Below, one piece after another: positions 8,155-33,884 of a DNA stretch of 64,000 nucleotides (position 1 is the stretch's first letter; every line of letters begins with the position of its first letter). The stretch is taken from NCBI GenBank assembly GCA_963801605.1, contig CAWDFP010000011.1:166907-230906 (forward strand). Direction: 5' to 3'. The notes under the pieces were generated by a model, which ran no database searches, was not told where the DNA came from, and saw only the letters and a list, made by a program, of their open reading frames with translations. This DNA comes from an uncultured candidate division Zixibacteria bacterium (GTDB lineage: Bacteria > Zixibacteria > MSB-5A5 > UBA10806). Both the position numbers and the translations under genes were made by a program.

Positions 8155-8727
8155 CTAATTTACGAAAGTCGAATCAAGCGCCAGATTTAGCAATAGGACA
8201 TTTACCCTCGGCTCTCCGAATATTCTAAAGTCTGGCTGCTCAATACTATTTTCGACAAGCTTAATTAGCTTTATTTTTTGGTTATTGTCAAGCCCTCGCG
8301 CGCCTGCCACCCTTTCAATTTGAAATCTGGCTGCTTCGGGTGATATATCGGGATCAAGCCCGCTCGCGGAACTAAAGAGCAGGTCCGAGGGAACTCGCCC
8401 CGAATAAGCGTTGGACCTTTGCAAAAACTCCTTTCGCGCCTTTACCGAATCTTTGAGTGCGGCGCTGGTTGGCCCCAGGTTTGACGCTCCTGACGGCAAA
8501 GGATTATAATCTGTTGCCGACGGCCGCGGCCAGAAATACTTTTTCCCTATAAATTTCTGCCCCAGGAGAGTTGAGCCAATAGCTTTACCATCGACCTTTA
8601 TTATGCTGCCGTTAGACTTGCTCGGGAAAATGGCCTGACCCAATAGCGTAATCAGGAGTGGATAAATAATCCCTGTCACCAGAGTCATTATCAGAAATAA
8701 TTTTAAGGCTTGAATTATCGTTTTCAT
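8155..8727 (-). CDS. kdpC: K+-transporting ATPase subunit C
   Basis: YFWPRPSA, SGASNLGPTS, SASGLDPDIS, GEPRVNVLLLNLALD. Alternative GTG start at 8736. Confidence 0.95.
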   Translation of the reverse strand: MKTIIQALKLFLIMTLVTGIIYPLLITLLGQAIFPSKSNGSIIKVDGKAIGSTLLGQKFIGKKYFWPRPSATDYNPLPSGASNLGPTSAALKDSVKARKEFLQRSNAYSGRVPSDLLFSSASGLDPDISPEAARFQIERVAGARGLDNNQKIKLIKLVENSIEQPDFRIFGEPRVNVLLLNLALDSTFVN

Positions 8728-8732
8728 AAATA

Positions 8733-10830
8733 TCACCTGACCAATCCAATCGTCGTAATTAACAGATCGAGAGCCTTTATTCCGATAAACGGAGCTAACA
8801 AACCCCCGACGCCATATATCAATAAATTCTTACGCAACAAGGTTGAGGCATTCTGCGCTCTATAATGAACTCCTCGCAGTGCCAGTGGAATTAAAGCTAC
8901 TATGATTAAAGCATTAAATATTATCGCACTTAATATGGCGCTTTGCGGCGAATGCAGCTTCATAATGTTTAAGGCCGAAAGCGGCCCAACCGAGTTCCCC
9001 GATACTGCATAGAGCGTTCCAAATATCGCCGGTATAATTGCGAAATATTTCGCCACGTCATTGGCTATACTGAATGTGGTCAGAGCGCCTCTGGTCATCA
9101 GCAACTGCTTTCCGATTTCCACTATTTGAATCAGCTTTGTCGGATTGCTATCCAGATCAACCATGTTGCCGGCCTCGCGAGCTGCCTGAGTGCCGGTGTT
9201 CATGGCAACAGCCACATCGGCCTGGGCCAGCGCCGGAGCATCATTGGTGCCATCGCCAGTCATGGCCACCAGATGACCTGCCGCCTGTTCTGCCCGGATA
9301 CGATCAAGTTTGGATTCAGGTGTTGCCTGAGCGATAAAATCATCAACTCCCGCCTCAGCCGCAATTGCTGCCGCGGTCATGGGATTATCGCCTGTAATCA
9401 TAACAGTTTTGATACCCATATTTCGTAATTCGGCAAAACGCTCTTTGATCCCGCCTTTGACAACATCCTTTAAATGTACGATTCCCAGATAATTCTTCTC
9501 ATCTGCTACCGCCAGCGGCGTGCCACCGGAATGCGATATTCGAACCACAGCCTCCTGAAGAGCCGTAGGAAAACTACTGCCGTTACCTTCAACATACTCG
9601 CGGATAGCATCCACTGCCCCCTTTCTGATCGATAAAGATGGTGAACCATCATCATCTAAAACATCGATACCGCTCATTCTGGTCTGGGCCGAAAATGGCA
9701 CGAATCTAGCCTGGCTGGGTGTTATGGTCTGAGCGCGAAGATCCGAATTTCTCTTTGGCTAATACCACTATGGAGCGCCCCTCGGGAGTTTCATCAGCTA
9801 ATGATGCCAGTTGGGCAGCTTCGGCTAAATGCATTGTGGAAATCATAGGCGCGGGAATAAATTCAACCGCCATGCGATTGCCGAATGTGATCGTACCGGT
9901 TTTATCGAGCAGCAGGATATCTATATCACCCGAGGCCTCGATTGCCCGTCCGCTTCTGGCTATTACATTTTGACGGATCAATCTGCCCATTCCGGCAATT
10001 CCAACGGCGCTTAGCAAACCGCCAATTGTGGTGGGAATAAGACATACCAACAGCGCGACAAGTACCGGCACGGTAACAATATTAGACAAATCCTGATCGC
10101 TGGCTTTACCGCTGTAATCGGCAAAGAATTTAAGCGTCGCTACTGCCAATAGAAAAATGATAGTCATCCCCGCCAAAACAATATTAAGAGCGATTTCATT
10201 TGGGGTTTTCTGCCGTCTGGCGCCCTCGATCATGGCAATTATATGGTCGATAAATGAATTTCCGGGTGTCGATGTTACCTGCATCACGATCCGATCGCTT
10301 ATCACTTTTGTCCCGCCGGTAACTGCGCTTCTATCACCGCCGCTTTCGCGGATCACCGGCGCCGATTCGCCGGTAATGGCGGATTCATCCACGCTGGCAA
10401 TTCCCTCGATAACTTCGCCATCGGCCGGAATGATATTGCCGGCTTCACATACGACAATATCGCCCTTTTTTAATACCGATGCCGGAATGCTCGTTTCGAT
10501 TCCATTTTTAAGCAATCTGGCATTGATCTCGACTCTGGTTCGTTTGAGACTTTCGGCCATCGCTTTGCCTTGTCCTTCGGCAATAGCTTCCGCAAAATTG
10601 GCGAAGAGCACCGTAAACCAAAGCCAGAGTGCAATCTGAAATTCAAATCCGGAAAAAGCGCCGCCAAACGCCCTTAATAGGAAGATTACCGATGTCATCA
10701 TCGCCCCGACCCATGTTACAAACATTACCGGGTTTCTGATTTCTTCCCGAGGAGTAAGCTTTTTAAAAGCTCCGATAATTGAGCTTTTAATAAGCTTTCT
10801 ATCAAACATATTTATCGCTTTTGTTACCAT
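8733..10830 (-). CDS. kdpB: K+-transporting ATPase subunit B (one-base frameshift near 9743, probably a sequencing error)
   Basis: TGES, DKTGT, KGAVD, TGDN and GDGTND are spread over two ORFs. Removing one base at ~9743 gives the continuous sequence [29 protein letters not shown]. Confidence 0.93.
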
Positions 10831-10838
10831 AATATCAC

Positions 10839-12527
10839 CTAAAACACCCTTCCCGCATTCATCAGAAAATGCTCTGCAATCGGGCCCAAAGATAATGATG
10901 GGAAAAAGGTAAGAGCGCCGACAATTAGAATCACCGAAACAAGCAATATTGCAAATGTGGCGTTGTCGGTGCTGAATGTACCTGCCGACGCCGCGGTCAC
11001 CTTCTTTTGCGCCAGGTTACCGGCTATTACAAGAGCCGGTACAATGACCGCAAAGCGTCCGATAAGCATGGCCAGTCCCAGTGATAGATTATAGAAAACC
11101 GTATTGGCATTTAACCCTGCAAAGGCGCTGCCATTATTGCCCACCGCTGATGTAAATGCATATAGTATTTCGCTGAGCCCATGCGGCCCGTTATTTGCCA
11201 AACTGGATAGACCAGCCGGCAGCACCGACGCAAATCCCGCTCCAACCAGGATGGCGGCGCATTGAGCAAGAATCGCAAGCAATGTCATTTGCATTTCGCG
11301 GGCTTCAATCTTCTTGCCAAGATATTCGGGGGTTCGTCCTACCATGAGGCCGGCCAGGAATACAGTCAACATAATAAAGAGGAGCATGCCGTACATGCCT
11401 GCCCCTACTCCTCCAAATATGATTTCACCCAGCATGATATTGAACATGGCCACTCCGCCGGCTATTGGCGTCAGGCTGTCATGCATGGAATTAACCGATC
11501 CATTGGAAGCTACAGTCGTTGCGGTTGACCAGATAACGCTATTGGCAACGCCGAACCTCGTTTCCTTTCCCTCCATAGAAATGCCGCCATAGATCGGATT
11601 GCCCCTGTATTCGGAATATAGCGAGAGTCCGAGGCTCGCAAACCACATGACGAACATGACGCCAAAAATAATCCAGCCATGACGTTTGTTTTTTACCATT
11701 CTGCCATAGGTAAACGTAAGTCCCGCGGGGATTAGAAGTATTGAAATCATTTCAAGAAAGTTTGTGAATGGCGTGGGATTTTCGAAAGGATGGGCGCTAT
11801 TGGCATTGAAAAAGCCGCCGCCATTGGTGCCAAGCTGCTTGATTGCAATCTGTGACGCTGCCGGGCCAAGTGGAATTACCTGCTTGATACCCTCGACGGT
11901 AGTAATTTCTTTATAATGAGAAAATGTTTGGACCACACCCTGGCTGATCAGGATTACTGCGAAAATCATAGTTAGCGGAAGCAATACATACAGCGTGGAT
12001 TTGACAACATCCGACCAGAAATTCCCGATGAATTTAGTTGTTTTGCGGATTATGCCTCTGGTAAGCGCCAGAAATACCGCTATGCCGGTCGCTGCGCTTA
12101 AAAAGTTTTGAACTGATAATCCCAGCATCTGGGTCAGGTAACTCATGGTAGTTTCGCCTGCGTACCCCTGCCAGTTGGTATTGGTCATAAAACTTATCGC
12201 GGTATTGATGGACGAGTGCCAGGAGACAATGGGTAATCCTTGCGGATTTAGCGGCAAACGTGATTGAAACATTTGCAAAAAAAAGACGGCCAAAAACCCA
12301 AACGCGTTGAACGCCAGCAGGGCGCCCGTATAATGTTTCCAGGTCATCTCTTCCGATGGGTCAATCCTGCAAACCCGGTAAATCCATCTTTCAGCCCGCC
12401 CGAAAACACTCTGCAATAAGTGATTCTTGCCTGAAAATACAGCCGCAATATATGCTCCGATAATCGGGGTTAATGCTATCAGAACGCCTATATATATAAC
12501 TACCTGCAGTAAATCATTGATCGGCAT
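10839..12527 (-). CDS. kdpA: K+-transporting ATPase subunit A
   Basis: [38 protein letters not shown]. Confidence 0.96.
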
Positions 12528-22779: not shown

Positions 22780-23082
22780 AGTTTTGGCGCTTCTGTTTTA
22801 CGCCTCAATTTGCATACTACGGCTTGTTTTGGAAAACTGATTGTTTCTGGAGTCATTAACCTGATTAGGTTCGGCACTTTCTACCCGGAGAAATTATGAG
22901 GCGCTTGTTATTACCTCGACTGCTAATTTTGACTTCAAATGCTGCTTATACGCCCCATGCTACTGATGATAAATTTGCAAAATGAAAATATGAAGACAAA
23001 AATTGATGACCTCGAAAGGAGACTTTCGGAACCTGAAAAACGCTAAGTAGCTGTTGGTGAAAAAACAACTTTGGAGAAATTT

Positions 23083-24838
23083 ATGAAATTCTTGCTACCT
23101 CTTGTTATTGGTTTGATGCTGACGATGAGCGTTGTTGCCGTCGCGGGCGGCCCTGGGATGATAAACTATCAGGGACAATTAAATGACAATTCGGGTAATC
23201 CCGTCCCTGACGGAAATTACAATGTAGTTTTTTCGATTTACAACCAGCTTGCCGGTGGCTTGCCGGTTTGGGCCGAGACAACCTCGGTTACAGTTGTCAA
23301 TGGTATCTTTACGAAGACACTTGGTTCCACACACGCCATCGCTCGCACTATATTTGAGGATGACCCCACATACCTGGGCATAAAAGTTGGAACTAACGCG
23401 GAGATGACGCCTCGCGCTCGCCTGGTTTCCGTTCCCTATGCCATACAGGCAAACAGAGCTGACACTGCCAGCGTCTCGCTCTCCGGCCCTGTAGGTAATG
23501 GCGGTTGGAGCTGATAACGGCAGCACGGTAACTTTGACCACGGCAACGGATAGAGTATTAATTAAATTCAACATCTACGACTGGTAAGCTGGCGTCTATT
23601 CGTCGCGGCACCGCAATTGTTGGCGAATGCAGCGCAATGATGGGCGCATCGGAATATGGAAAGGCATATGGCAGCTTTGGTCAGGGGTTCGAGGTTATGC
23701 CACAGGTCAAGCGGTAACGGAGTTATGGTATTGCGGACTAGCGCAACCACTATCGGTGTTTATGGCTTGCTAAAGATATTGACAAATGGAAAAGGGGTCC
23801 AGGGCGTTATCCGAGGGTGACGGTGACGGCGTTTATGGCGAGTCCCAGGGAACAGGGCGCGGCGTTGTTGCTCTATGCCTCGGGAACCGGTATGGGCCTG
23901 GTGGCTACTTCCGAACAAAGCATTGGCGTGTTTGCAACCTCAAACAAATCCATCGAGGGCATGGGTATATTCGGTCTGGCCAGCGGCAGCCACCCCACCG
24001 GAATCAAGGGTTACTCCAGTGGCACCTATGCTACCGGCGTTCATGGACAAGCCGCCAGCCGAGATGGTATTGGCGTTTATGGCCAGGCCGATAGCGCCGA
24101 TGGTATCGCGGTAAAAGGCTCTTCGAATGGATTACGAGGAAAGGGCCTCCTTGGCACCGCATCCGGCCCCAGCGGCATTGGAATTTATGGTGAAAATACC
24201 TATAACAATGGCGTTGCTATAAAGGGCATAGCGACCAACGCCACAGCAGGCACTGGAGTTGAAGGCGAAGGTGCGTCAATTGGAGTATACGCCCATGGTA
24301 TAAGCGCCACCGCCACCGGAATAAGGGCTGTAGCAGGCGGTCCAAACGCTAAGGCGGCCATACTCGTAGGCAATTTACTTATGTATGGTGTAACCTCAGG
24401 CGAAGTTGTCATGGAGCTCGGCGAGGGACTCGATTATGCCGAGGCTTTTGATATTTCCGAAGGCGTTGATATCGCTCCTGGTACAGTGGTGGCAATCGAT
24501 TCCAAAAATCCCGGCAAGTTGGCGGTTTGTCAGAGTGCTTATGATAAAAAAGTTGCCGGTATTGTGGCTGGAGCAAATGGCTTGGGCTCCGGTGTTCGTT
24601 TGGGAACCGGGAAATATGATAAGGATGTGGCCTTGGCAGGCAGAGTATACTGCCAGGTTGAAGCTCTGGATGAAGCTATCGAGCCGGGCGATCTTCTCAC
24701 CACATCAGTCAACTCCGGGATATGCCATGAAAGCTAACTGATCATTTGAAAGCTCAGGGCGCAATCTTGGGTAAAGCGATGGAGCCATTGGCCAGGGGGC
24801 AAAAGGGAATGATTTTGGTGCTGGTAACTTTACAGTAG
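23083..24838 (+). CDS. Secreted tail-fibre-like protein with Gly-rich GVxG repeats and a C-terminal peptidase G2-like intramolecular chaperone domain (several frameshifts)
   Basis: Signal peptide; N-domain INYQGQLND..G.PVPDGNY..VFSIY; repeats GVYG/GIYG/AIKG. The C-terminus DYAEAFD..PGTVV..AYDKKVAGIV..VALAGRVY..IEPGDLLTTS..PGYAMKA..GAILGKAMEPL..GMILVLVTLQ is pieced together across indels at ~23509-23810 and ~24710-24740. Confidence 0.7.
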
Positions 24839-24853
24839 GCGATGGAGGAAAAA

Positions 24854-26322
24854 ATGAAATTAATATTATTTTTAATTATCCTCTGCGCTTCGCTGTTTGC
24901 AATTGTACCCACCGCATTTGCTCAGCCGATCACCAGTCAGGAAGCTGCCATTGTGGCCAGCAATTGGTTGACTTTGGTATGGTCTAAGACCGGCGATTGG
25001 GGTGGCACAACAAGGCCCTCTCTAGCGAATGTGGAGGAATATAAGCGCGGAAACAGAACTCTGGGTTATTTCTGCAAAGTAAACCCAAGTGGATATATAC
25101 TCGTATCCCTGCTCAGAGGATTACCGCCTATTACGGCTTATTCGACAACATGCAATCTCGATCTCAGCGTTGATGAAGGGCCGGGAGATCTCTTAAAATA
25201 TTGGCCCGAACGGGTCTTAAATCAAATCGAAAAACAACTTGGACCATTATCTGGTGTTACGCCCGACCGATTGCGTCCGCTCTTGGCGATTGATAATACT
25301 GACGTGTGGAATATGCTGAGCCAGAGACCCGGTAAATTTTCAATACTCAGCTCGAAAATGGCACTATCGCCCGAGGATTATTATCAAGGCGATATTCTTT
25401 TAACATCCAACTGGCATCAGTTTGAGCCATATAACAACAATTGCCCATCTAATTCTGATGTCTGCGATAATCCCCACTGTGCGGCTGGATGCGTAGCTAC
25501 CGCAGCGGCTCAAATAGTCAGATATTGGTCGTGGCCTCCTGGTCGCGATTTTATGAGCATGAGAGATTACGTCTACACATCCGATTCAACGCAATGGCAG
25601 GCCACCGTGGCCGAACTGAGCTCTTTTCTCGGTTTAGCGGTAGATATGGATTATTGCGAGAACGACGGCTGCGCGTCCGGATCTTTCATTGTCGATATGG
25701 AAGTGGTTTTGGAAGATCTGTCGTATGACCAAGCCTGCTGGGTTGCCTTTCGATCGGATTACGCTGAAGATCCGATGGGTTGGTGGGGTCTGATTACGAC
25801 GATCTCGATGCCAACCGGCCAATTGAATATGGTATCCCCGGTCATGCCATAGTTTGCGATGGCTATAACAATATGGGCGGCCAGTGGAATTACCACATGA
25901 ATTATGGCTGGGCAGGCATGCGCGATTCCTTTAGTACTTGGTATGCCCTGGATAATTTATATTATCCCGCCGAAGGGGATTTATCCGAGGAAAAAATGCT
26001 CATAGGAATCCGGCCAAACTCAAACATCGGCTCGATGGGCTGGTTTGATTATTCTGGTTACAGCTATGTGACCCGCGATTTTGTCGGCGGCAATGCTCAT
26101 TTTAATCCCGGAAGCAGAATTCAATTCCTTACTCAACCGGCGACGGTACTTGGCGCCTCAGCTAATAGTGTTAGGATAGATGGTGCACCTTCAGCAATTA
26201 CGAAGCTTTATGCCATCGACGAAACGCAGGGAATAGTAATTACTAATGCGAGCATAATAATCAATAATGGTGGAGGAATTCAGATGATCCGCGAGAGGCC
26301 GGGGATATATGATTTAAGGTGA
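24854..26322 (+). CDS. C10 family (streptopain/SpeB-like) cysteine protease with propeptide (frameshift near 25798)
   Basis: WHQFEPYN, catalytic AGCVATAAAQI, GHAIVCDGY, HMNYGWAG. Adding one G at ~25798 gives WWGLITDDLDANRPIEYG. Confidence 0.88.
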
Positions 26323-26416
26323 CCCAAAAATCTTGAACCACCCGGCTTAATCGACTTTGATGAATTGATTGGAAATTGATGGATAGAAGAATTAAAGAAA
26401 TTTGAAAGGAGTAACC

Positions 26417-28256
26417 ATGCGCAATGTTTTAGTACCCTGTTTATTCGTCTTCATTTTCCTTATGATGATTGTGCCCGTTGTAACGGCCCAGGATGGCCGG
26501 CCGGAGCCGCCGCGTCTGCATTATCAGGCTGCACTCCACAATCAGCTCGGTGAAATCGTACCGGATAGTAATTATTTTATGACATTCAGGATATTTTCCG
26601 ATTCGATAGGCGGGACTTTGTTATGGTCAGAGACCCATCCCGGTGTACCGGTTAGAGGCGGGTCGTTTAATGCCGAATTAGGGAGTGTCAATCCATGCTC
26701 CCTTAGTTTGTTCAATTTCGGACGGCTCTATCTCGAAACGCAAATCGGCGATGACGCTATTCCATTGAGCCCGCGAGCCAGGTTAGGCTCGGCGCCATCA
26801 TCAGGTTCGTCTCAAAGGGTATCAGGCGATATTAGTACATCACCGGGCTTAATTCGCATGTTTGCGCCGCAGCCTGAACCGCCAGATCAATCCATTGTTG
26901 AGATCGAAAACCAATCTCGGCGGAGAAGCCAGTCTTGTTATGTTCGCTCCCCAACCTGAACCTCCGGCCCGAGCCATTCAAAACAATGGAGATAAGTTCA
27001 TCACCATCCGGTGGAGCGAGTTTCGGCATGTCTGCAGTTCAAGGCAGTTACGCCAAACAGATATTCGGTGTCCAAACTAATCTGTCAGGAACTGATATGC
27101 AGTTCTTTGCTCCTCAGGCCGGTGGCGCTCGGTTGGTCAATAATAATCCTCAGATTCAGGCTTAAGGCTGGATAGTTTATATACCCGCAGGATGTTAATT
27201 CAAAGAGCCCGTTCACCTGACCGGAGGCCCATCCGACAGTACCGGAGTCTCGATGAAGGCCGATTCAATAAATAGCAAGTTTTCCTTATTCAGCAGCAAT
27301 AATCCCCAGGTCAAGGTTACAGCCTACATCGAGGCGGTGGAGCAATGAACCTGTTCAGTCATGGCTCTGAGTATATGGGCATTGAACCAAGCCCGTTTAA
27401 CAGCGGTGGCGCCGTAAGGATGTATGACGGCGCTGGGGCGAAATCTCTTGAAATTACATCTGAAGGGTCTGCCAGTTTTCTTAATGATGGTACCGAATAC
27501 ATGGGCGTCGGGCCAAGCCCATTTCATCCTGGCGGTGATTTTGTGATGATTGATACCAACGGGGTTAATACAATGGCTTTTAGCTCTCAAGGTATTGCAA
27601 GTTTCTTTAGCGATGGTACTGAGTTTATGGGCGTTGAGCCTAGCCCGTTTAATCCTGTCGGCACTCTAAAGATGTATGATAGCACTGGCGTATCTACCAT
27701 TGAGCTTTCCTCCAGCGGCTCAGCCAACTTCAAGCGTAACGGCACCGAATATATGGGTATTGGACCAAGTCCGTTTAATGGCACCGGAGTTTTAACAATG
27801 TATGGCGGTGCTCCTATTGGAACTCGGGTTATTCTTTCTTCGGATGGCAAATTGAGCCTCGGCACTTCAAGCACTTCAAACATCCTGACTATCCAGCAAT
27901 ATTCAATTACTGATCCAATTGCCGATGCCTGGACCACATACAGCTCGCGCCGCTGGAAAACAAACATTCAACCAATGCAGGGTTCGCTTGCCAGAGTAAT
28001 GAAGCTTCAAGGCGTATCGTACGATCAAAAAGAAGGTGGCAAGCATGAAATCGGCTTGATCGCCGAAGATGTTGGCCAGGTTGTGCCGGAAGTTGTCGCT
28101 TATGAAGACAATGGTATTGACGCCAAGTCAATCGACTATGCCCGCTTGACGGCGTTGTTAGTCGAAGCAGTCAAGGAGCAGCAAAAGACTATTGAAAATC
28201 AAAATCTCAAAATCGAAAAGCTTCAGAGTGAAATAAATAAATTAAGTGAAAAATAA
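26417..28256 (+). CDS. Secreted tail-fibre-like repeat protein with a C-terminal peptidase S74 chaperone domain (several frameshifts)
   Basis: Same N-domain type as the 23083 gene (LHYQAALHNQLGEIVPDSNY..TFRIF). FAPQPEPP and EYMG.EPSPF repeats. S74 signature YSSRRWKTNI..IGLIAEDV..VPEVV..IDYARLTALLVEAVKEQQ. Indels between ~26907 and ~27330. Confidence 0.78.
27369..27778 (+). repeat. Four copies of an intragenic 126-nt (42-aa) tandem repeat
   Basis: E(Y/F)MG(I/V)(E/G)PSPF begins at 27369, 27495, 27621 and 27747. Confidence 0.9.
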
Positions 28257-28261
28257 AGGGA

Positions 28262-28849
28262 ATGACCATGAAAACCAGAATTACCTTATTATTATTTTTA
28301 ATGCTGGTATCAGTCGCATCCGCCCAAACTTACCAAATCGATTGGTATGTTATCGGCGCCGGAGGCGGCCATTCCCAATCGGGAAGCTATCAGCTTGATG
28401 GCACCATCGGCCAGCCGATAGTAGGGAAATCGAGTTCTGCCAGCTATTCTCTCGATGCGGGATTTTGGGTGGGAACATCCACCACCGGACCCGCCTGCGA
28501 TTATTCCGTCGGTGACGCCAACAACAGCCATAGTTTCAATGGCCTCGATGTTACCTATAGTGTGGGCTATTTTAAGGGTGGTCCAGCGCCGCCATACACC
28601 TGCGAATGCACACCGGGACACACCTGGTACGTAGCCGGGGACGTGAACGCGTCCTGTTCGTTTAACGGCCTTGATGTTACCTACATGGTGAGTTATTTCA
28701 AGGGTGGGCCGGCGGTTCATCCATGCGGCGATTGTCCCCCGGGAGGAATGTTTGCTCCGCCTGTTCCGGGAATAGAGCCGACACCGGCAGTTCAACCGGT
28801 ACTAAATTCCGAGCTTTATGCTAAGCCTGCCGCGCCCGGACAGGAGTAG
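28262..28849 (+). CDS. Secreted protein with a dockerin-like duplicated Ca-binding domain
   Basis: Signal peptide; YQIDWYVIGAGGGHS.SGSYQLDGTIGQP domain; duplicated GDANNSHSFNGLDVTYSVGYFKGG / GDVNASCSFNGLDVTYMVSYFKGG. Confidence 0.8.
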   Translation: MTMKTRITLLLFLMLVSVASAQTYQIDWYVIGAGGGHSQSGSYQLDGTIGQPIVGKSSSASYSLDAGFWVGTSTTGPACDYSVGDANNSHSFNGLDVTYSVGYFKGGPAPPYTCECTPGHTWYVAGDVNASCSFNGLDVTYMVSYFKGGPAVHPCGDCPPGGMFAPPVPGIEPTPAVQPVLNSELYAKPAAPGQE

Positions 28850-28877: not shown

Positions 28878-28904
28878 AGGGCAGCCATGCGGGCTGCCCT
28901 TTTT
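28878..28904 (+). terminator. Rho-independent terminator
   Basis: AGGGCAGCC-ATGCG-GGCTGCCCT followed by TTTT. Confidence 0.8.
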
Positions 28905-28976: not shown

Positions 28977-31649
28977 CTAACCATTCCTGAAAAAATCGAT
29001 TATCAATCCAATTAATGGCCAGCTCCTGTATTTCCTGAAATAATTATTTAGTTTTTTTCTATTGGCCAGGTAAAACAGGATTGCAATAACAGCAATAGAA
29101 ATTAGGTTTATAAACAATTCCTTTTCAGTTCCCTTTGTATTTCCTGTCCAGATTTCGTAAATTACGTCAAATACCATGACACACTGAATGGCGCCCAAAA
29201 GGACCAAAAGAACATTCATTAAATTAAGACGCTTTCGCTCCTGATCCTCGCGCTTTTTTGTCCTTTGATTTTGAATTCGTTGAATTACAGCAGTCATGGC
29301 CTGCTGTCCCGATGTTAAATTCTGGATTTTAATTTGAAGGTCGTTAGTAAGCTCGGGCATCGAAAGCGATGAGAATGCTTTTCGAAGAAGCAGGGCATGA
29401 TCGGCATATTGCGAGACTGTTGCCGAATTGACGTGATCCAGCGCAGTCAGGGCCAGCGCTCCGAATTTCTGAACATCCAGATGCATGTTATAAACTTTAT
29501 GCTCGAAATCGTCGAGCTTGGCGTCATCAAGAACATCATCGATAACCGGGAATACATCGCTGATCATATTAATGGTGGCTTTAAGATTTTCCAGAGGTTT
29601 ATCGCTCTCTGCCAGACAATACAAAATCAGCGTTCGTATCAGGATAATCCATTTGGTGGTTTCGATATACTGCAGGACTATAAATTCGGGATCATCCCGC
29701 ATAAAAATGATGGCATAGTTTTCGGTTAGTCCAAAGAAATCACTTTTATGGCCCCTGACCTGCGCCAGGTTTTTGATATTGATATCGTCCAATGAGATTC
29801 CAATCCAATCGTCGACACTGGCCTTATCAGCGCGATGGTAGGACCAGATACCCGGCCATTCGGGGTTGGCGGCTAAATTTTTGCTATCAATCGCATTACC
29901 GTGTTCATCTGTAATATTATAGAACCTGATACTGGTAAACCAGGTTTGGCTGGGTTCCATCCAGCGATCAGGTTCAGATAACACGGCAATATCGTTCTCG
30001 GGATGTTCGGTTTTTGGCCTGAAGCCCTTTAGTTCATCCTGATAGAATTGATCTATCAGCTTATGATATTCCTCAAATATTTTTTCAGCCAATTCGGGTA
30101 CTCGTCCCCATGACGTTGTAGGATATTCCGCTTTTGACGCTACTTTTTCGGGAGTATCGTCGGGATCAATTTTGTTGTCGAATGCCATTTCATATCGAGC
30201 CGCGTGGGGGCAGATCATGTTTTTGATTACTTGAAAATCAGACACGGTAAATTTGGTTTTATTTCGATCGTCCGGTTTTTCGATTTCAAAATTAATTATC
30301 CCCACGCCAATCCGGCAATGCAGTAGTTTAGGCTTAAGCTTAAGAGGAAAGACCGGATCGTTCGGATCGAATTTTTGAAATGGCAGTTTGTTGACTACCA
30401 GTGTGGGAAATTCAATAAGTATATTTTCAAAATGCTTGGACCCGATATTCGTTTCAAGTATATCGGGCGCCGGGTCGTTTGACGCTGCCAGAATTGGGAA
30501 TGATCCAATGCCATGATCTACATTTAATTTTTTACGTAATTTATCGAAAATGCTGAGAGCTTTCAGTTCTGTCTGGTCGGCTTTTGCGGGTTCGTTTGAG
30601 GATATGGGCGTCGGGAAATTATTTTTTCCGGCGGCGGTACCTTTTTCCGGGGCCTCAACTTTCTCCGAATCCTCTTTCCACTGAAATCCTGATACATCCA
30701 AATAGAAACCCACCATTAACTGACCATCAATTTGGTCAATTCTTAGTCTGGGGTTTCCTCTTTGAGCGGCGAATCTATCGAGAGTAACCAGATGTCCCCG
30801 CATTTCCGATGCCGATTCAAAATCCGGAAATTTTACTTTGCCGGCTGCTTTATTATTCTCATATTTTTCGAGATAAGAAATGCATTCTATTAACTGCGGC
30901 CGGAATGATGGGTATTCTGTATAGAACCTATTGCGATCCTTCTGACAATAATCCATATATTCCGTGGTTTTAACCAGGCATTCATGATGTTTAACGGATT
31001 GCGTTATAAAGTCATCCAGATTTTCGGCGAAATCTTTCAATTCAGGATCAGGTGATGAAAATACATTTTTGAGCTTTTTTGACGCCTCATCGCTTAATTC
31101 GAGATATCGTTTGGCATGGTGCCGCATTTCGAGCGGGTCATTGGCGATCATGCCATTTTCGATAAGCGACTGGTGCAGGACGCGTTGAGCCAGAAACGAA
31201 AGCGCCTCGAAAAGATTCTTCGTATACGAATCTATACCCGGATGAGCTTTCGCGGTGAAATCGGCTATCAATTTGGATGACACCAGGCCGCAGCCGATAC
31301 AATCGTAATTGAAACTGTCTTCCCATCTTTCATAAGCGGAACAATGGAGATAAAAGTAGAGCGCCAGAAATTTATCGATATTTATCGACGAGGCGTTCTG
31401 GAATATCGGTTTTAATACTTCTTTCCAGCGCTGGCATTCCCACATATCGGATTTTAACCCGCAATGCAGTTCTCCGCAGGGATGATGCTTATCCTCGCGA
31501 CCCCTTTCGGGAAGCCCGTGAACGCAATCATCCACGTTTTCGGGAAGCTTATCTTTGTTGGAAAAAAGTATCTCTTCGGTAATAAGCCGGGCGTTTTCCT
31601 GCTCGCACTCGATATAATAATCAAGCATTACATTAAAATCTTTGGTCAT
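28977..31649 (-). CDS. Hypothetical 890-aa protein: Cys/His-rich N-terminus, long coiled coil and two C-terminal TM helices (CorA-like topology)
   Basis: Long uninterrupted ORF with RBS GGAGG. TM1 LMNVLLVLLGAIQCVMVF, TM2 LFINLISIAVIAILFYLA, basic tail. No GMN motif. Confidence 0.75.
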   Translation of the reverse strand: MTKDFNVMLDYYIECEQENARLITEEILFSNKDKLPENVDDCVHGLPERGREDKHHPCGELHCGLKSDMWECQRWKEVLKPIFQNASSINIDKFLALYFYLHCSAYERWEDSFNYDCIGCGLVSSKLIADFTAKAHPGIDSYTKNLFEALSFLAQRVLHQSLIENGMIANDPLEMRHHAKRYLELSDEASKKLKNVFSSPDPELKDFAENLDDFITQSVKHHECLVKTTEYMDYCQKDRNRFYTEYPSFRPQLIECISYLEKYENNKAAGKVKFPDFESASEMRGHLVTLDRFAAQRGNPRLRIDQIDGQLMVGFYLDVSGFQWKEDSEKVEAPEKGTAAGKNNFPTPISSNEPAKADQTELKALSIFDKLRKKLNVDHGIGSFPILAASNDPAPDILETNIGSKHFENILIEFPTLVVNKLPFQKFDPNDPVFPLKLKPKLLHCRIGVGIINFEIEKPDDRNKTKFTVSDFQVIKNMICPHAARYEMAFDNKIDPDDTPEKVASKAEYPTTSWGRVPELAEKIFEEYHKLIDQFYQDELKGFRPKTEHPENDIAVLSEPDRWMEPSQTWFTSIRFYNITDEHGNAIDSKNLAANPEWPGIWSYHRADKASVDDWIGISLDDINIKNLAQVRGHKSDFFGLTENYAIIFMRDDPEFIVLQYIETTKWIILIRTLILYCLAESDKPLENLKATINMISDVFPVIDDVLDDAKLDDFEHKVYNMHLDVQKFGALALTALDHVNSATVSQYADHALLLRKAFSSLSMPELTNDLQIKIQNLTSGQQAMTAVIQRIQNQRTKKREDQERKRLNLMNVLLVLLGAIQCVMVFDVIYEIWTGNTKGTEKELFINLISIAVIAILFYLANRKKLNNYFRKYRSWPLIGLIIDFFRNG

Positions 31650-31698
31650 TTTTCGTCCTCCCTAAAAGGCGGACTCGAATCAAAGAAGAGACGTTGAT

Positions 31699-33693
31699 CT
31701 AGCGTTTTCGAGCCGACAATGCTCTATTGGCCAATACAAGTGTTTCCCGACGGTCAATAGTAAAACGATGATTTTTATAGTATTCCGGCAAGATTTTCTG
31801 AAAGTAACCGGTTTTCGACACAAACGATGGAATTGCTTCCTTTTCAGTAGGGAAAGGCACCAATTTAGTCGGCGCGTCATTCAGTAAACCGTATTTGACG
31901 TTAACTCGGTCCCATCCGATTCCTTTTCCCATTGAACCGCCTCCGCAAACCGAAAAATAATCGAGCATCAAATCGGCGGCTTCAAGCGACAGCGGGACCT
32001 TATTGCCCTGGGGCGTAAAGGCCCTGATACATAGAAACATCGGCACCGAATTCCAGGCATCCGAATCAAAATGATCGAGATGATAATCGGTATCCGGTTG
32101 AGCATAACGATATGGCCAGATTACCTTGCGCCCCGATTTGCCATGGAATGTCAAGCGACGCATGGAGCCTTCACCGCGAGGTCCGGGATCGGGAAATTCC
32201 ACTTCCGATAGCTCAAACTTCAGTGCCGGCTGCTTTAGAGCGCTCCAATCGCAATCTCCCAAAGCGGCTTTGGCCTCGACTAAATGATTATTGGCAGCTT
32301 GCCAAACGAATGAATTCAAGAATGATCCCAATCCCTTAGACCTGAGCTTGTCGTCAGTGGCGATATGGGATGCATAAAAAATTGTGTTTTTTCGGTCGGC
32401 AATAACGGCGCCATCAGCAGCGCATACTACCTTGCCTGACGGATCCACCAGTACTAACATTGTCCAGCGGTACCATATCGGACGTTCGCTGCCGGGTTCA
32501 CCGACGTTCGAAATTCTTCCGCCGTGTATGCGGTTTGCTTTCATAAAAGAAACGATCATACCAGGGCCGTCGATCTCATCCGGAGCAAACCAGCGGGCCA
32601 GCAGCGCATATCCCTCTTTGGCCAGTCGGCAGCTGAAATCGAGTATCTCATACGGTTTGTATCCGGGCTTTTTACGAATGAGGTCCTTGATAAAAAATGC
32701 CGTACTCGATTTTTCGATAAGTTGGACAGAATCTTTATTATTTTCGCTGAAAACCGAATCGCCGTTAACCTGCTTAATTCTTTCGAGGAAACTTTCGCCA
32801 TAGCTTTCGAGACAGCGCAAAGCGTCCTTTGTTTCCGCCGAAAGATATAAATACTGAAGGGCGCCTTTTTCGGTTAGCAGCAGGTCATCATCGAGCGCAT
32901 TATCCAGTGATTTAAGGATGTTTGAACTGTAATTTTTTAGGAATTCCTTATATGATACCGCCAGCTTCCTGGCAAAAGAATCGCGTTGTTTGCTGATTTC
33001 ATTTATTTGGCTTACGATTGTTTTCAGGAAATTTCTAATACGAACCGAGTATAATTTCAAACCCGCCTCTCTAGCGGTTTTTTCATAACCGTTACAGGTA
33101 TAGCCCAGTATATCCTCCAGAAAAAATGTCTCGTAATCCGGCGAATGACGCAGCTCCTTTTCAATTCGAACATAATCGAAATCATTCTCGTCATAGAGCA
33201 TGACCGTTTTCCACCAATCGAGGGGAGCATCCAATTCACGCATGGCGGCCGTACCATTTACGGCGAAATTCCTGACATATTTTTCGTATTCGGGCCAGTG
33301 CACCATGGGGCAATCGTGCTGGTCGATTATAAACTCGATCCGTTTGCCCTTGATATCCATTATAATCGGATAAGTGTCGCACAAAATCGGCTTAACCGGC
33401 AGGGCCGTACAATGATATTCCTTATCCAGAAAAGGACAACCATTCTTCATTTTTAGGACATCGACATCGCCATAAGGGGTATTCAGGCGATCAAGATACT
33501 TGTTCTCAAAATCGTTTAGCGGCATGTTGAAATACGATGCCATATACTCTTTTTCGCCGGGGAGTAAGGTAGAGACCTTATATATTTCGCACTTGCCTCC
33601 GCAACGGGCGCAAGCGTCGTATGTATCCCCCTGAAAAGTGGAATGATACCTGTTGATTGATTTTGAGCAGTCAGGCATATTTTTCCTCGCCAT
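31699..33693 (-). CDS. Fusion of a YkgJ/CxxCxxCC-type cysteine-cluster domain and a GNAT-like acetyltransferase domain
   Basis: N-terminal CARCGGKC...CPFLDKEYHC...KPILCDTYP. C-terminal HIATDDKLRSKGLGSFL (GNAT motif A), EVE..RRLTFHGKSG..YAQP..PMFL. Confidence 0.75.
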   Translation of the reverse strand: MARKNMPDCSKSINRYHSTFQGDTYDACARCGGKCEIYKVSTLLPGEKEYMASYFNMPLNDFENKYLDRLNTPYGDVDVLKMKNGCPFLDKEYHCTALPVKPILCDTYPIIMDIKGKRIEFIIDQHDCPMVHWPEYEKYVRNFAVNGTAAMRELDAPLDWWKTVMLYDENDFDYVRIEKELRHSPDYETFFLEDILGYTCNGYEKTAREAGLKLYSVRIRNFLKTIVSQINEISKQRDSFARKLAVSYKEFLKNYSSNILKSLDNALDDDLLLTEKGALQYLYLSAETKDALRCLESYGESFLERIKQVNGDSVFSENNKDSVQLIEKSSTAFFIKDLIRKKPGYKPYEILDFSCRLAKEGYALLARWFAPDEIDGPGMIVSFMKANRIHGGRISNVGEPGSERPIWYRWTMLVLVDPSGKVVCAADGAVIADRKNTIFYASHIATDDKLRSKGLGSFLNSFVWQAANNHLVEAKAALGDCDWSALKQPALKFELSEVEFPDPGPRGEGSMRRLTFHGKSGRKVIWPYRYAQPDTDYHLDHFDSDAWNSVPMFLCIRAFTPQGNKVPLSLEAADLMLDYFSVCGGGSMGKGIGWDRVNVKYGLLNDAPTKLVPFPTEKEAIPSFVSKTGYFQKILPEYYKNHRFTIDRRETLVLANRALSARKR

Positions 33694-33855
33694 TAAGCTA
33701 AGTTGTCTCCGAGACAATACCTACTCTTTCCGGGAATTTAAATCATTTTATCTATCCGGGAAAGGACGATTTAAATAATTACAGATTAAATTAAACAAAG
33801 ATTCTAAAAACCGCTCCATAATAATCTTTGGGGAAAATATGGAGATCTCGATTTA

Positions 33856-33884
33856 AGATTAGGGTTGTAGGCGTTCAATGTCAA
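33856..33884 (-). promoter_or_regulatory. Sigma70-like promoter for the YkgJ-GNAT two-gene unit
   Basis: Minus strand TTGACA-N17-TAATCT. Confidence 0.45.

Follow-up and report, generated by a model that had tools for sequence, protein, structure and literature searches.

A conserved gene pair encoding a predicted acetyltransferase and an extended CorA-like membrane protein, from a candidate division Zixibacteria bacterium

What task is served by an enzyme and a large membrane protein that are encoded side by side in a combination that apparently matches no described system? The question is raised by two genes, here called A and B, of an uncultured candidate division Zixibacteria bacterium (assembly GCA_963801605.1, contig CAWDFP010000011.1), which lie in a stretch of 64,000 nucleotides covering positions 166,907 to 230,906 of the forward strand. 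This whole stretch is the window to which positions refer unless a locus number (L) is given. Gene A codes for a cysteine-rich domain joined to a GNAT acetyltransferase fold, and gene B for a membrane protein with a large cytoplasmic part. A preliminary description had recognised no described system with such a pairing and had compared the two genes to defence or signalling systems built from an enzyme and a membrane effector, such as the CorA effectors of type III CRISPR loci. No description of the pairing was found in the literature either, with the restriction that supplementary domain-architecture tables, which could list the family, were outside the search. A and B apparently constitute a real, conserved and undescribed module, the mechanism of which we infer.

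The two genes form one conserved unit. Homologues of A were found at 11 loci, of which three end inside the gene, three carry a short A without the GNAT domain, and five have a full-length A followed by readable DNA. B is the next gene in four of these five (L001 from Bacteroidetes, L003 from Promethearchaeota, L006 and L010), separated from A by gaps of 10, 6 and 32 nucleotides or joined to it by a 4-nucleotide overlap. Three further A/B couples, on contigs of equal size from the same source (12,245; 139,528; 4,979), are presumably adjacent as well. Homologues of the two genes thus do co-occur, and the idea of an enzyme working with a membrane protein is borne out by this pairing and reinforced by the gene fusions described below. 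A predicted complex of B residues 1-660 with A residues 330-659 scored 0.00, which is no evidence either way.

The wider rule for relatives of B is the presence of a GNAT partner, not of A itself. A profile search of 1.84 billion representatives with B returned 103 proteins (E ≤ 0.001), and in a survey of 400 Asgard genomes 10 had a strong match (E ≤ 1e-93) besides the genome of L003. At all 10 of these further loci a GNAT gene is the immediate neighbour; nine were recognised by PF00583, and the tenth is 48% identical to one of the nine. Adjacency by chance would be expected at about 1-2% per locus, as calculated from the 18-43 GNATs per genome in four Asgard genomes, and a profile built from the adjacent GNATs detected no second GNAT-like gene among the 125 open reading frames (ORFs) of nine Asgard loci. 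The 10 loci fall into three clades of 6, 3 and 1 genomes (FastTree, midpoint root) and should not be counted as 10 events; across the tree of 82 B sequences the link with a GNAT occurs in six separate clades.

Several relatives of B carry the partner in the same polypeptide. Protein P0054 has an N-terminal GNAT, whereas P0069 has a C-terminal GNAT in place of the transmembrane (TM) helices; these two domains share 29% identity and are of the Y-x-Q-P type found in A (HHalign 95% global, 72% local). In P0065 a relative of B is fused to an A-type YkgJ domain (E 1e-58), and P0021, which belongs to the same clade as B of the window, carries a deacetylase after the second TM helix (PF00850, E 2.5e-60) with its catalytic motifs present. 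Altogether, three unrelated types of GNAT and five arrangements were encountered, including upstream, downstream, convergent and fused ones. Since types and positions appear to be interchangeable, a shared chemistry is favoured over a fixed protein interface.

Taken alone, neither A nor B has a significant match in Pfam, NCBIfam or PADLOC, and their domains (Table 1) were recognised with the help of homologues and structure models. The A family comprises 16 proteins including A, at 34-87% identity, and A has no hydrophobic segments. Its C-terminal domain has a GNAT fold in the model, and acyl transfer is predicted: residues 340-585 match PDB 3ey5 best (Z 14.5, root-mean-square deviation (rmsd) 2.8, 176 residues aligned), Foldseek finds the domain at E 2.8e-4, PF00583 is matched by nine of the 16 homologues at E ≤ 0.1, and the motif A residues R446 and G451 are present in all 16, with G449 in 15. 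The 3ey5 protein, a putative GNAT of Bacteroides thetaiotaomicron, is a stand-alone chain of 176 residues; A is longer by a cysteine domain and a helical bundle, and by an extension at its C-terminus.

The cysteine domain of A resembles the YkgJ family. The match of A itself to PF03692 is weak (E 0.005, 17.9 bits against a cut-off of 23), and 14 of the 16 homologues match at E ≤ 0.1, the best at 4e-5. Five of the eight conserved cysteines occur in all 16 rows of the alignment; 14 rows extend to the other three, which are present in every one of these. The YkgJ-like FliB is reported to hold a [4Fe-4S] cluster on a CX4CX3CC motif and to methylate lysine (PMC8598068), and the FliB/YkgJ family shares with A a cysteine-rich N-terminal domain with eight conserved cysteines. 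Unlike FliB, A has a C23-x2-C26-x3-C30 arrangement (CxxCxxxC) that lacks the terminal CC, and its Pfam score stays below the cut-off. Iron-sulfur binding or group transfer by this domain is a possibility. Of the two group-transfer domains that had been assigned to A, the GNAT fold is therefore confirmed, and a second modifying activity is unproven because the YkgJ-like domain is optional: it is missing from the GNAT partners at the 10 Asgard loci. Derivation of A from the N-terminal helices of B was considered and rejected, as no profile match was found beyond the YkgJ fusion.

The model of B, for which 70 of the 103 relatives were aligned, shows a helical domain (residues 1-295), an alpha/beta core, a helical hairpin and a long stalk that continues into the first of two TM helices. 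Hydrophobic segments start at residues 813 and 844, and a single helix from 764 to 835 contains stalk and TM1, with the second TM helix at the C-terminal end. The C-terminal part, scored within the full-length model, matches CorA, ZntB, CmaX and Mrs2 (PDB 8zah, 8zak, 3nwi, 7nh9, 4i0u) with Z values of 9-11.7. For Campylobacter jejuni CorA these are 11.5-11.7, with an rmsd of 2.4-2.8 over about 120 aligned residues, which is within the range of generic helical matches; ZntB gives 10.9 and full-length CorA or Mrs2 about 9-9.8. The large cytoplasmic domain followed by two TM helices, noticed already in the preliminary description, is thus recovered, and B is modelled as a protein of CorA-like two-TM topology.

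Nevertheless, B is not a canonical channel of this group. In the model it shares with the CorA, ZntB, CmaX and Mrs2 metal channels (2-TM-GxN, MIT superfamily) the helical hairpin, the long stalk leading into TM1 and the C-terminal second TM, but is nearly three times as long, has a consistent GNAT partner and lacks the GxN filter. No GxN follows TM1 in B, a G[MLV]N triplet is found in the last 120 residues of only one of the 82 family sequences, and the Pfam CorA models do not match B; an ordinary magnesium channel was rejected for lack of the GxN motif. Conservation, scored over the same 82 sequences, is confined to the cytoplasmic part, where 30 polar or aromatic columns reach a conservation of ≥70%, as compared to none of the 57 columns of the TM part. 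Seventeen such columns lie within residues 297-660, and those of B at this level include seven for Asp, four for Arg and three for His, whereas the highest lysine column is at 34%, so that the family has no conserved lysine. In a clade of five proteins (P0074, P0076, P0080, P0093 and P0069; support 1.0; two named Anaerolineae) the TM helices are missing altogether, and a pore is therefore not universal in the family.

Residues 297-870 of B align end to end with two shorter families of Asgard archaea (HHalign 94-95%, 413-427 columns), which do not cover the helical domain 1-295. In the family of about 460 residues (L028:547-1941, L029, L033, L034), a class I glutamine-amidotransferase-like gene is the neighbour in four of six loci viewed, and members of the family of about 560-580 residues (L035:544-2280, L043, L044, L045) have an NL-x-x-R...H motif in common with B and continue behind the TM helices into a C-terminal Nudix hydrolase domain. 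The helical domain itself matches Bro1 at Z 13.9 (rmsd 4.8, 8% identity); a Bro1/ESCRT identity was rejected, since this score is at the level that the tool states for generic helical folds.

Table 1 Features of the A/B locus (positions in the window)
Feature	Position	Strand	Remarks
Gene A	31699..33678	-	659 aa; YkgJ-like Cys domain, three-helix bundle and GNAT; AF2 pLDDT 85.8
YkgJ/CxxCxxCC-like domain, A residues 1-195	33094..33678	-	8 conserved Cys: 23, 26, 30, 81, 90, 100, 123, 195
Three-helix linker bundle, A residues 199-306	32761..33084	-	AF2 secondary structure
GNAT acetyltransferase fold (predicted), A residues 335-585	31924..32676	-	Motif A H438...R446-x-x-G449-x-G451 intact; Y-x-Q-P motif
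Gene B	28977..31649	-	890 aa; extended CorA-like two-TM membrane protein without GxN; pLDDT 88.0
Helical repeat-like N-terminal domain, B residues 1-295	30765..31649	-	Conserved WxxSYxY, EN and SELxAH motifs
Alpha/beta cytoplasmic core, B residues 297-660	29670..30761	-	Contains most of the conserved polar residues; predicted ligand site
Family motifs, B residues 606-637	29739..29834	-	R-x-x-[RK]-A-S-x-D-D-W; N-L-A-x-I-R-x-H-x-x-D
CorA-type helical hairpin and stalk, B residues 661-808	29226..29669	-	Y-x-D-H motif
Two transmembrane helices, B residues 813-862	29064..29213	-	Hydropathy; sequence not conserved
Hairpin terminator-like site	28878..28900	both strands in listing	Common to gene B and the convergent left gene
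Candidate sigma70-type promoter	33856..33884	-	Perfect -35, 17-nucleotide spacer, weak -10; not above chance

The CorA effectors of type III CRISPR systems, such as that of Bacteroides fragilis (PMC10600005, PMC11229360), are among the closest parallels. Their CorA body is divergent and its cytoplasmic part enlarged, Arg and Asp residues are conserved where a ligand presumably binds, and the substrate of the adjacent or fused enzyme is a small molecule; B is predicted to resemble them in these respects. SAM-AMP is reported as the ligand of the characterised CorA, which depends on two conserved pairs, Arg-Arg and Asp-Asp, and on a ligand-degrading partner (PMC10600005), and other clades of CRISPR CorA have been proposed to use other ligands (PMC11229360). 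Residues R606/[RK]609 and D613/D614 of B are reminiscent of the Arg and Asp pairs, a likeness by description only. On the other hand, B has an additional helical domain of about 295 residues, its partner is an acetyltransferase or deacetylase, and no NrN, DEDD or SAM-AMP lyase neighbour was seen in the loci read, where the partner is the GNAT. The PADLOC CorA model matched neither B nor 22 relatives, with E 0.024 for a distant Asgard relative. A link to cas10 or CRISPR is also lacking: cas10 (TIGR02577) was not found in the own genome (G000, 87% complete) or in genomes G061 and G062, and no cas genes occur among the neighbours of the loci read. The B family thus is a member neither of the canonical CorA channels nor of the CRISPR CorA effectors, and by analogy it probably works like the latter.

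How may the two proteins act together? The exchangeable GNATs, the fused deacetylase, the absence of a fixed lysine and the concentration of conserved residues in the cytoplasmic part together suggest a diffusible, acetylatable ligand as the simplest reading. Our tentative preference, to which we would give somewhat less than an even chance, is that B senses a small amine whose acetylation state is set by the GNAT partner. The GNAT domain of A would transfer an acyl group from acyl-CoA to the amine, and B, probably as a CorA-like oligomer, would bind the free or the acetylated form at its conserved cluster of Asp, Arg, Trp and His residues. Binding would then move the stalk helix, by which the two-helix pore opens or closes; in the clade without TM helices it would act on the fused GNAT instead. 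The cysteine domain of A may contribute a metal or redox input that the system can do without, or may act as a second modifier. There is a slight preference for acetylation as an off switch, since ligands are removed by the superfamily's other partner enzymes (NrN, Nudix hydrolases, amidohydrolases). The earlier suggestion had been that the enzyme either modifies its partner or makes a ligand for it; the ligand option, be it synthesis or destruction, fits better, since B has no conserved lysine and is combined with three unrelated types of GNAT.

For the identity of the amine some leads are available. An agmatinase-like gene is located 25 nucleotides upstream of the matched start of A at L001, and was not found in 60 family relatives; at L006 an arginine-decarboxylase-like gene directly precedes A. 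In the PDB, the sequence of A comes closest to a diamine acetyltransferase (6yug), with E 0.006 and an alignment limited to motif A, and the fold matches of the GNAT domain are not specific to the polyamine-acetylating subfamily. These leads are weak, but they make agmatine or a polyamine the foremost candidate, and the four conserved Arg columns of B could equally point to a phosphate-bearing ligand. The genome of L001 also has an arginine decarboxylase followed by a 1,9-bis(guanidino)-5-aza-nonane synthase of the homospermidine route (L062:1501-4037), and at L006 gene A occupies the position of this synthase behind the orthologous decarboxylase. The class III aminotransferases in the vicinity of L051 and L054 are 2.7-3.6 kb away and were disregarded as a sign of polyamine metabolism.

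A number of observations weigh against sensing of an amine by a conserved A/B unit. At L009 a full-length A has no B downstream (the contig ends 151 bp upstream), and the B of L010 is cut short at 385 residues, with an identical product on other contigs. Short forms of A that lack the GNAT, and consist of the YkgJ domain alone or joined to the helical bundle, are found in four genomes in which no B was found (L002:9950-10945, L004, L005 and L056:7101-7748; three Spirochaetota and one relative from the class of the window organism). The match to CorA is moderate, extending over about 120 residues with a Foldseek E of 0.15 and a best profile E of 0.016, and the TM part that should form the pore is unconserved and absent from the whole clade of five sequences. 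Furthermore, the deacetylase, YkgJ and GNAT fusions are represented by one protein sequence each, gene neighbourhoods cover only a minority of the 103 family matches, and polyamine genes are immediate neighbours in only two of 16 loci, in both cases with scores below the family cut-offs.

A bolder version, which we consider doubtful, is that a GNAT as writer and an enzyme of the HDAC family as eraser toggle an amine messenger that gates a CorA-type pore or a fused enzyme, in bacteria as well as in Asgard archaea. The messenger could be derived from agmatine or a polyamine, or be a conjugate formed from S-adenosylmethionine by the Fe-S-like YkgJ domain.

Among the explanations that compete with ligand sensing, detoxification or scavenging of amines survives best, even though we regard it as unlikely. 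The GNAT would acetylate a toxic amine that is exported by B, or B would import an acetylated amine from which the fused deacetylase frees the base. The two polyamine-related neighbours just mentioned, the housekeeping type of the neighbourhoods and the stable inheritance in six Thorarchaeota-type genomes are in agreement with such a function. The Bacillus genes for the exporter Blt and the spermidine acetyltransferase BltD, which are co-transcribed, offer a precedent of a GNAT paired with a membrane protein in amine acetylation. BltD is given as a polyamine acetyltransferase in PMC11998418, and spermidine efflux by Blt is known from a title cited there. Blt, however, is a multidrug transporter that crosses the membrane many times; in B, a large cytoplasmic part is attached to two TM helices. 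A selective transporter would be expected to have conserved residues in its TM helices, of which B has none, the clade without TM helices would be difficult to explain, and a cytoplasmic part of 800 residues seems far beyond what export needs.

Protein acetylation, to which we assign a small chance, could take two forms: A acetylates B, or B is a membrane scaffold that places the GNAT on protein substrates, after the manner of the helical auxiliary subunits of Nat complexes, and in both cases the deacetylase reverses the reaction. It is supported by the second-tier fold matches of A, which are protein N-terminal acetyltransferases (Z 11-12.6), by the weak matches of the helical N-terminus of B to auxiliary subunits of NatC and NatB (Z 10.3 and 9.4), and by the lysine methyltransferase activity reported for the YkgJ-like FliB (PMC8598068). 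A helical Z of about 10 is generic, however, and the lack of a conserved lysine in B as well as the improbability of one interface serving three unrelated types of GNAT argue against it.

A function against phages, with a similarly low probability, would employ the same ligand-dependent mechanism, with infection changing the ligand or the activity of A and B depolarising the membrane. The patchy, cross-domain spread of B would suit it, as would the use of divergent CorA and two-TM proteins as defence effectors (PMC10600005, PMC11229360) and a SocA/Panacea antitoxin-like gene upstream of A in the Promethearchaeota genome (L003:346-780). The context otherwise gives a different picture, since no defence gene was detected among 117 neighbouring ORFs of 16 loci at E ≤ 1e-12; within this set the library matched two ABC ATPases and one TnpB/Cas12f-like gene, and nothing else. 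Neither protein matched PADLOC (version 2.0, library of 2023), the own genome has no cas10 match, and the pair is inherited throughout the lineage in the Thorarchaeota-type genomes. The earlier reading as a defence system resembling the type III CRISPR CorA effectors has accordingly found no support, although a defence role is possible. The Promethearchaeota locus is the only one with a mobile or defence flavour; in the same genome, NucS-like and ParA-like genes are also found downstream of a B fragment (L055:2032-3988).

It is improbable that B is a membrane-tethered enzyme which, together with the GNAT, makes up a short pathway of biosynthesis or lipid modification and takes its turn ahead of the GNAT or behind it. 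The well-conserved Asp, Arg and His columns, as an active site, and the unconserved, dispensable TM helices would allow it, but no enzyme fold was found for the core, with matches restricted to CorA/ZntB/Mrs2 and helical bundles, and relatives of B take unrelated enzyme partners (Nudix, glutamine-amidotransferase-like), for which reason a sensor fits better.

The distribution of the two genes is uneven. B was found in one of 285 genomes of the own phylum, one of 301 Bacteroidota and 11 of 400 Asgard genomes, but in none of 251 Spirochaetota, nor in the three Spirochaetota genomes with a short A. Matches to A were obtained in two of 61 relatives, the own genome and one with a short form of 215 residues, and a full-length A is present in only one of the 400 Asgard genomes. 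No B was found in viral contigs, plasmids or BFVD folds, and no A in phages. The presence of B in a single genome out of 285 points to horizontal acquisition, and the patchy spread as a whole resembles that of genes that move horizontally, whereas the pair of B with a GNAT is stable in the six Thorarchaeota-type genomes.

The CRISPR effectors are the only CorA relatives that we found described as answering to an organic ligand. The B family suggests that the same body has become linked to acetyl chemistry more than once, through writer as well as eraser enzymes, outside CRISPR and in Asgard archaea too. The two genes therefore offer a directly testable route to a new small-molecule messenger or a new mode of pore gating, for which the present analysis names R606/K609, D613/D614, R632/H634/D637 and D750/H751 of B as residues for mutation and a natural variant without TM helices for structural work. 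Should the bolder version with writer and eraser hold, SAM-AMP/CorA signalling would have a counterpart that does not use a nucleotide, and the system would belong, as one branch, to a larger and uncharted group in which CorA-like sensors have Nudix, amidohydrolase or acetyl-turnover enzymes as partners.

With respect to the locus itself, the layout is as had been described: two long intact ORFs on the minus strand, 49 nucleotides apart and opposed to the flanking plus-strand genes, of which the left one is convergent and the right one divergent. Gene A starts with ATG behind a GAGGA ribosome site, with an alternative TTG at 33717 that would give 672 residues, and gene B is preceded by a GGGAGGA site. 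The promoter proposed for the pair remains a candidate: a perfect TTGACA is present at 33884-33879, followed after 17 nucleotides by a weak TAATCT (3/6 match); the site is absent from the list of the scanner, and the nine promoter-like sites of the region are no excess over the 10.8 ± 3.2 of shuffled sequences, for which reason the promoter was dropped as evidence. The absence of mobile-element marks agrees with the ORF lists, in which no integrase or transposase was seen (inspected by eye; tRNAs not scanned). The GC content of the A/B region is 44.1%, the 6th percentile of 1280 genome windows, and that of third codon positions is at the 10th percentile for gene B and the 41st for gene A among 552 long ORFs.

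Further away, positions 23071-28849 of the window hold a plus-strand run of secreted-looking proteins, which we take to include phage-tail-fibre-like, peptidase C10-like and dockerin-like segments. Some of the ORFs are apparently split (24842-25852 and 25780-26322; 26402-26959 and 27345-28256). Positions 8155-12527 presumably form a kdp potassium-pump cluster; its KdpB-like gene is divided between two ORFs (9706-10830 and 8733-9701), possibly due to a frameshift.

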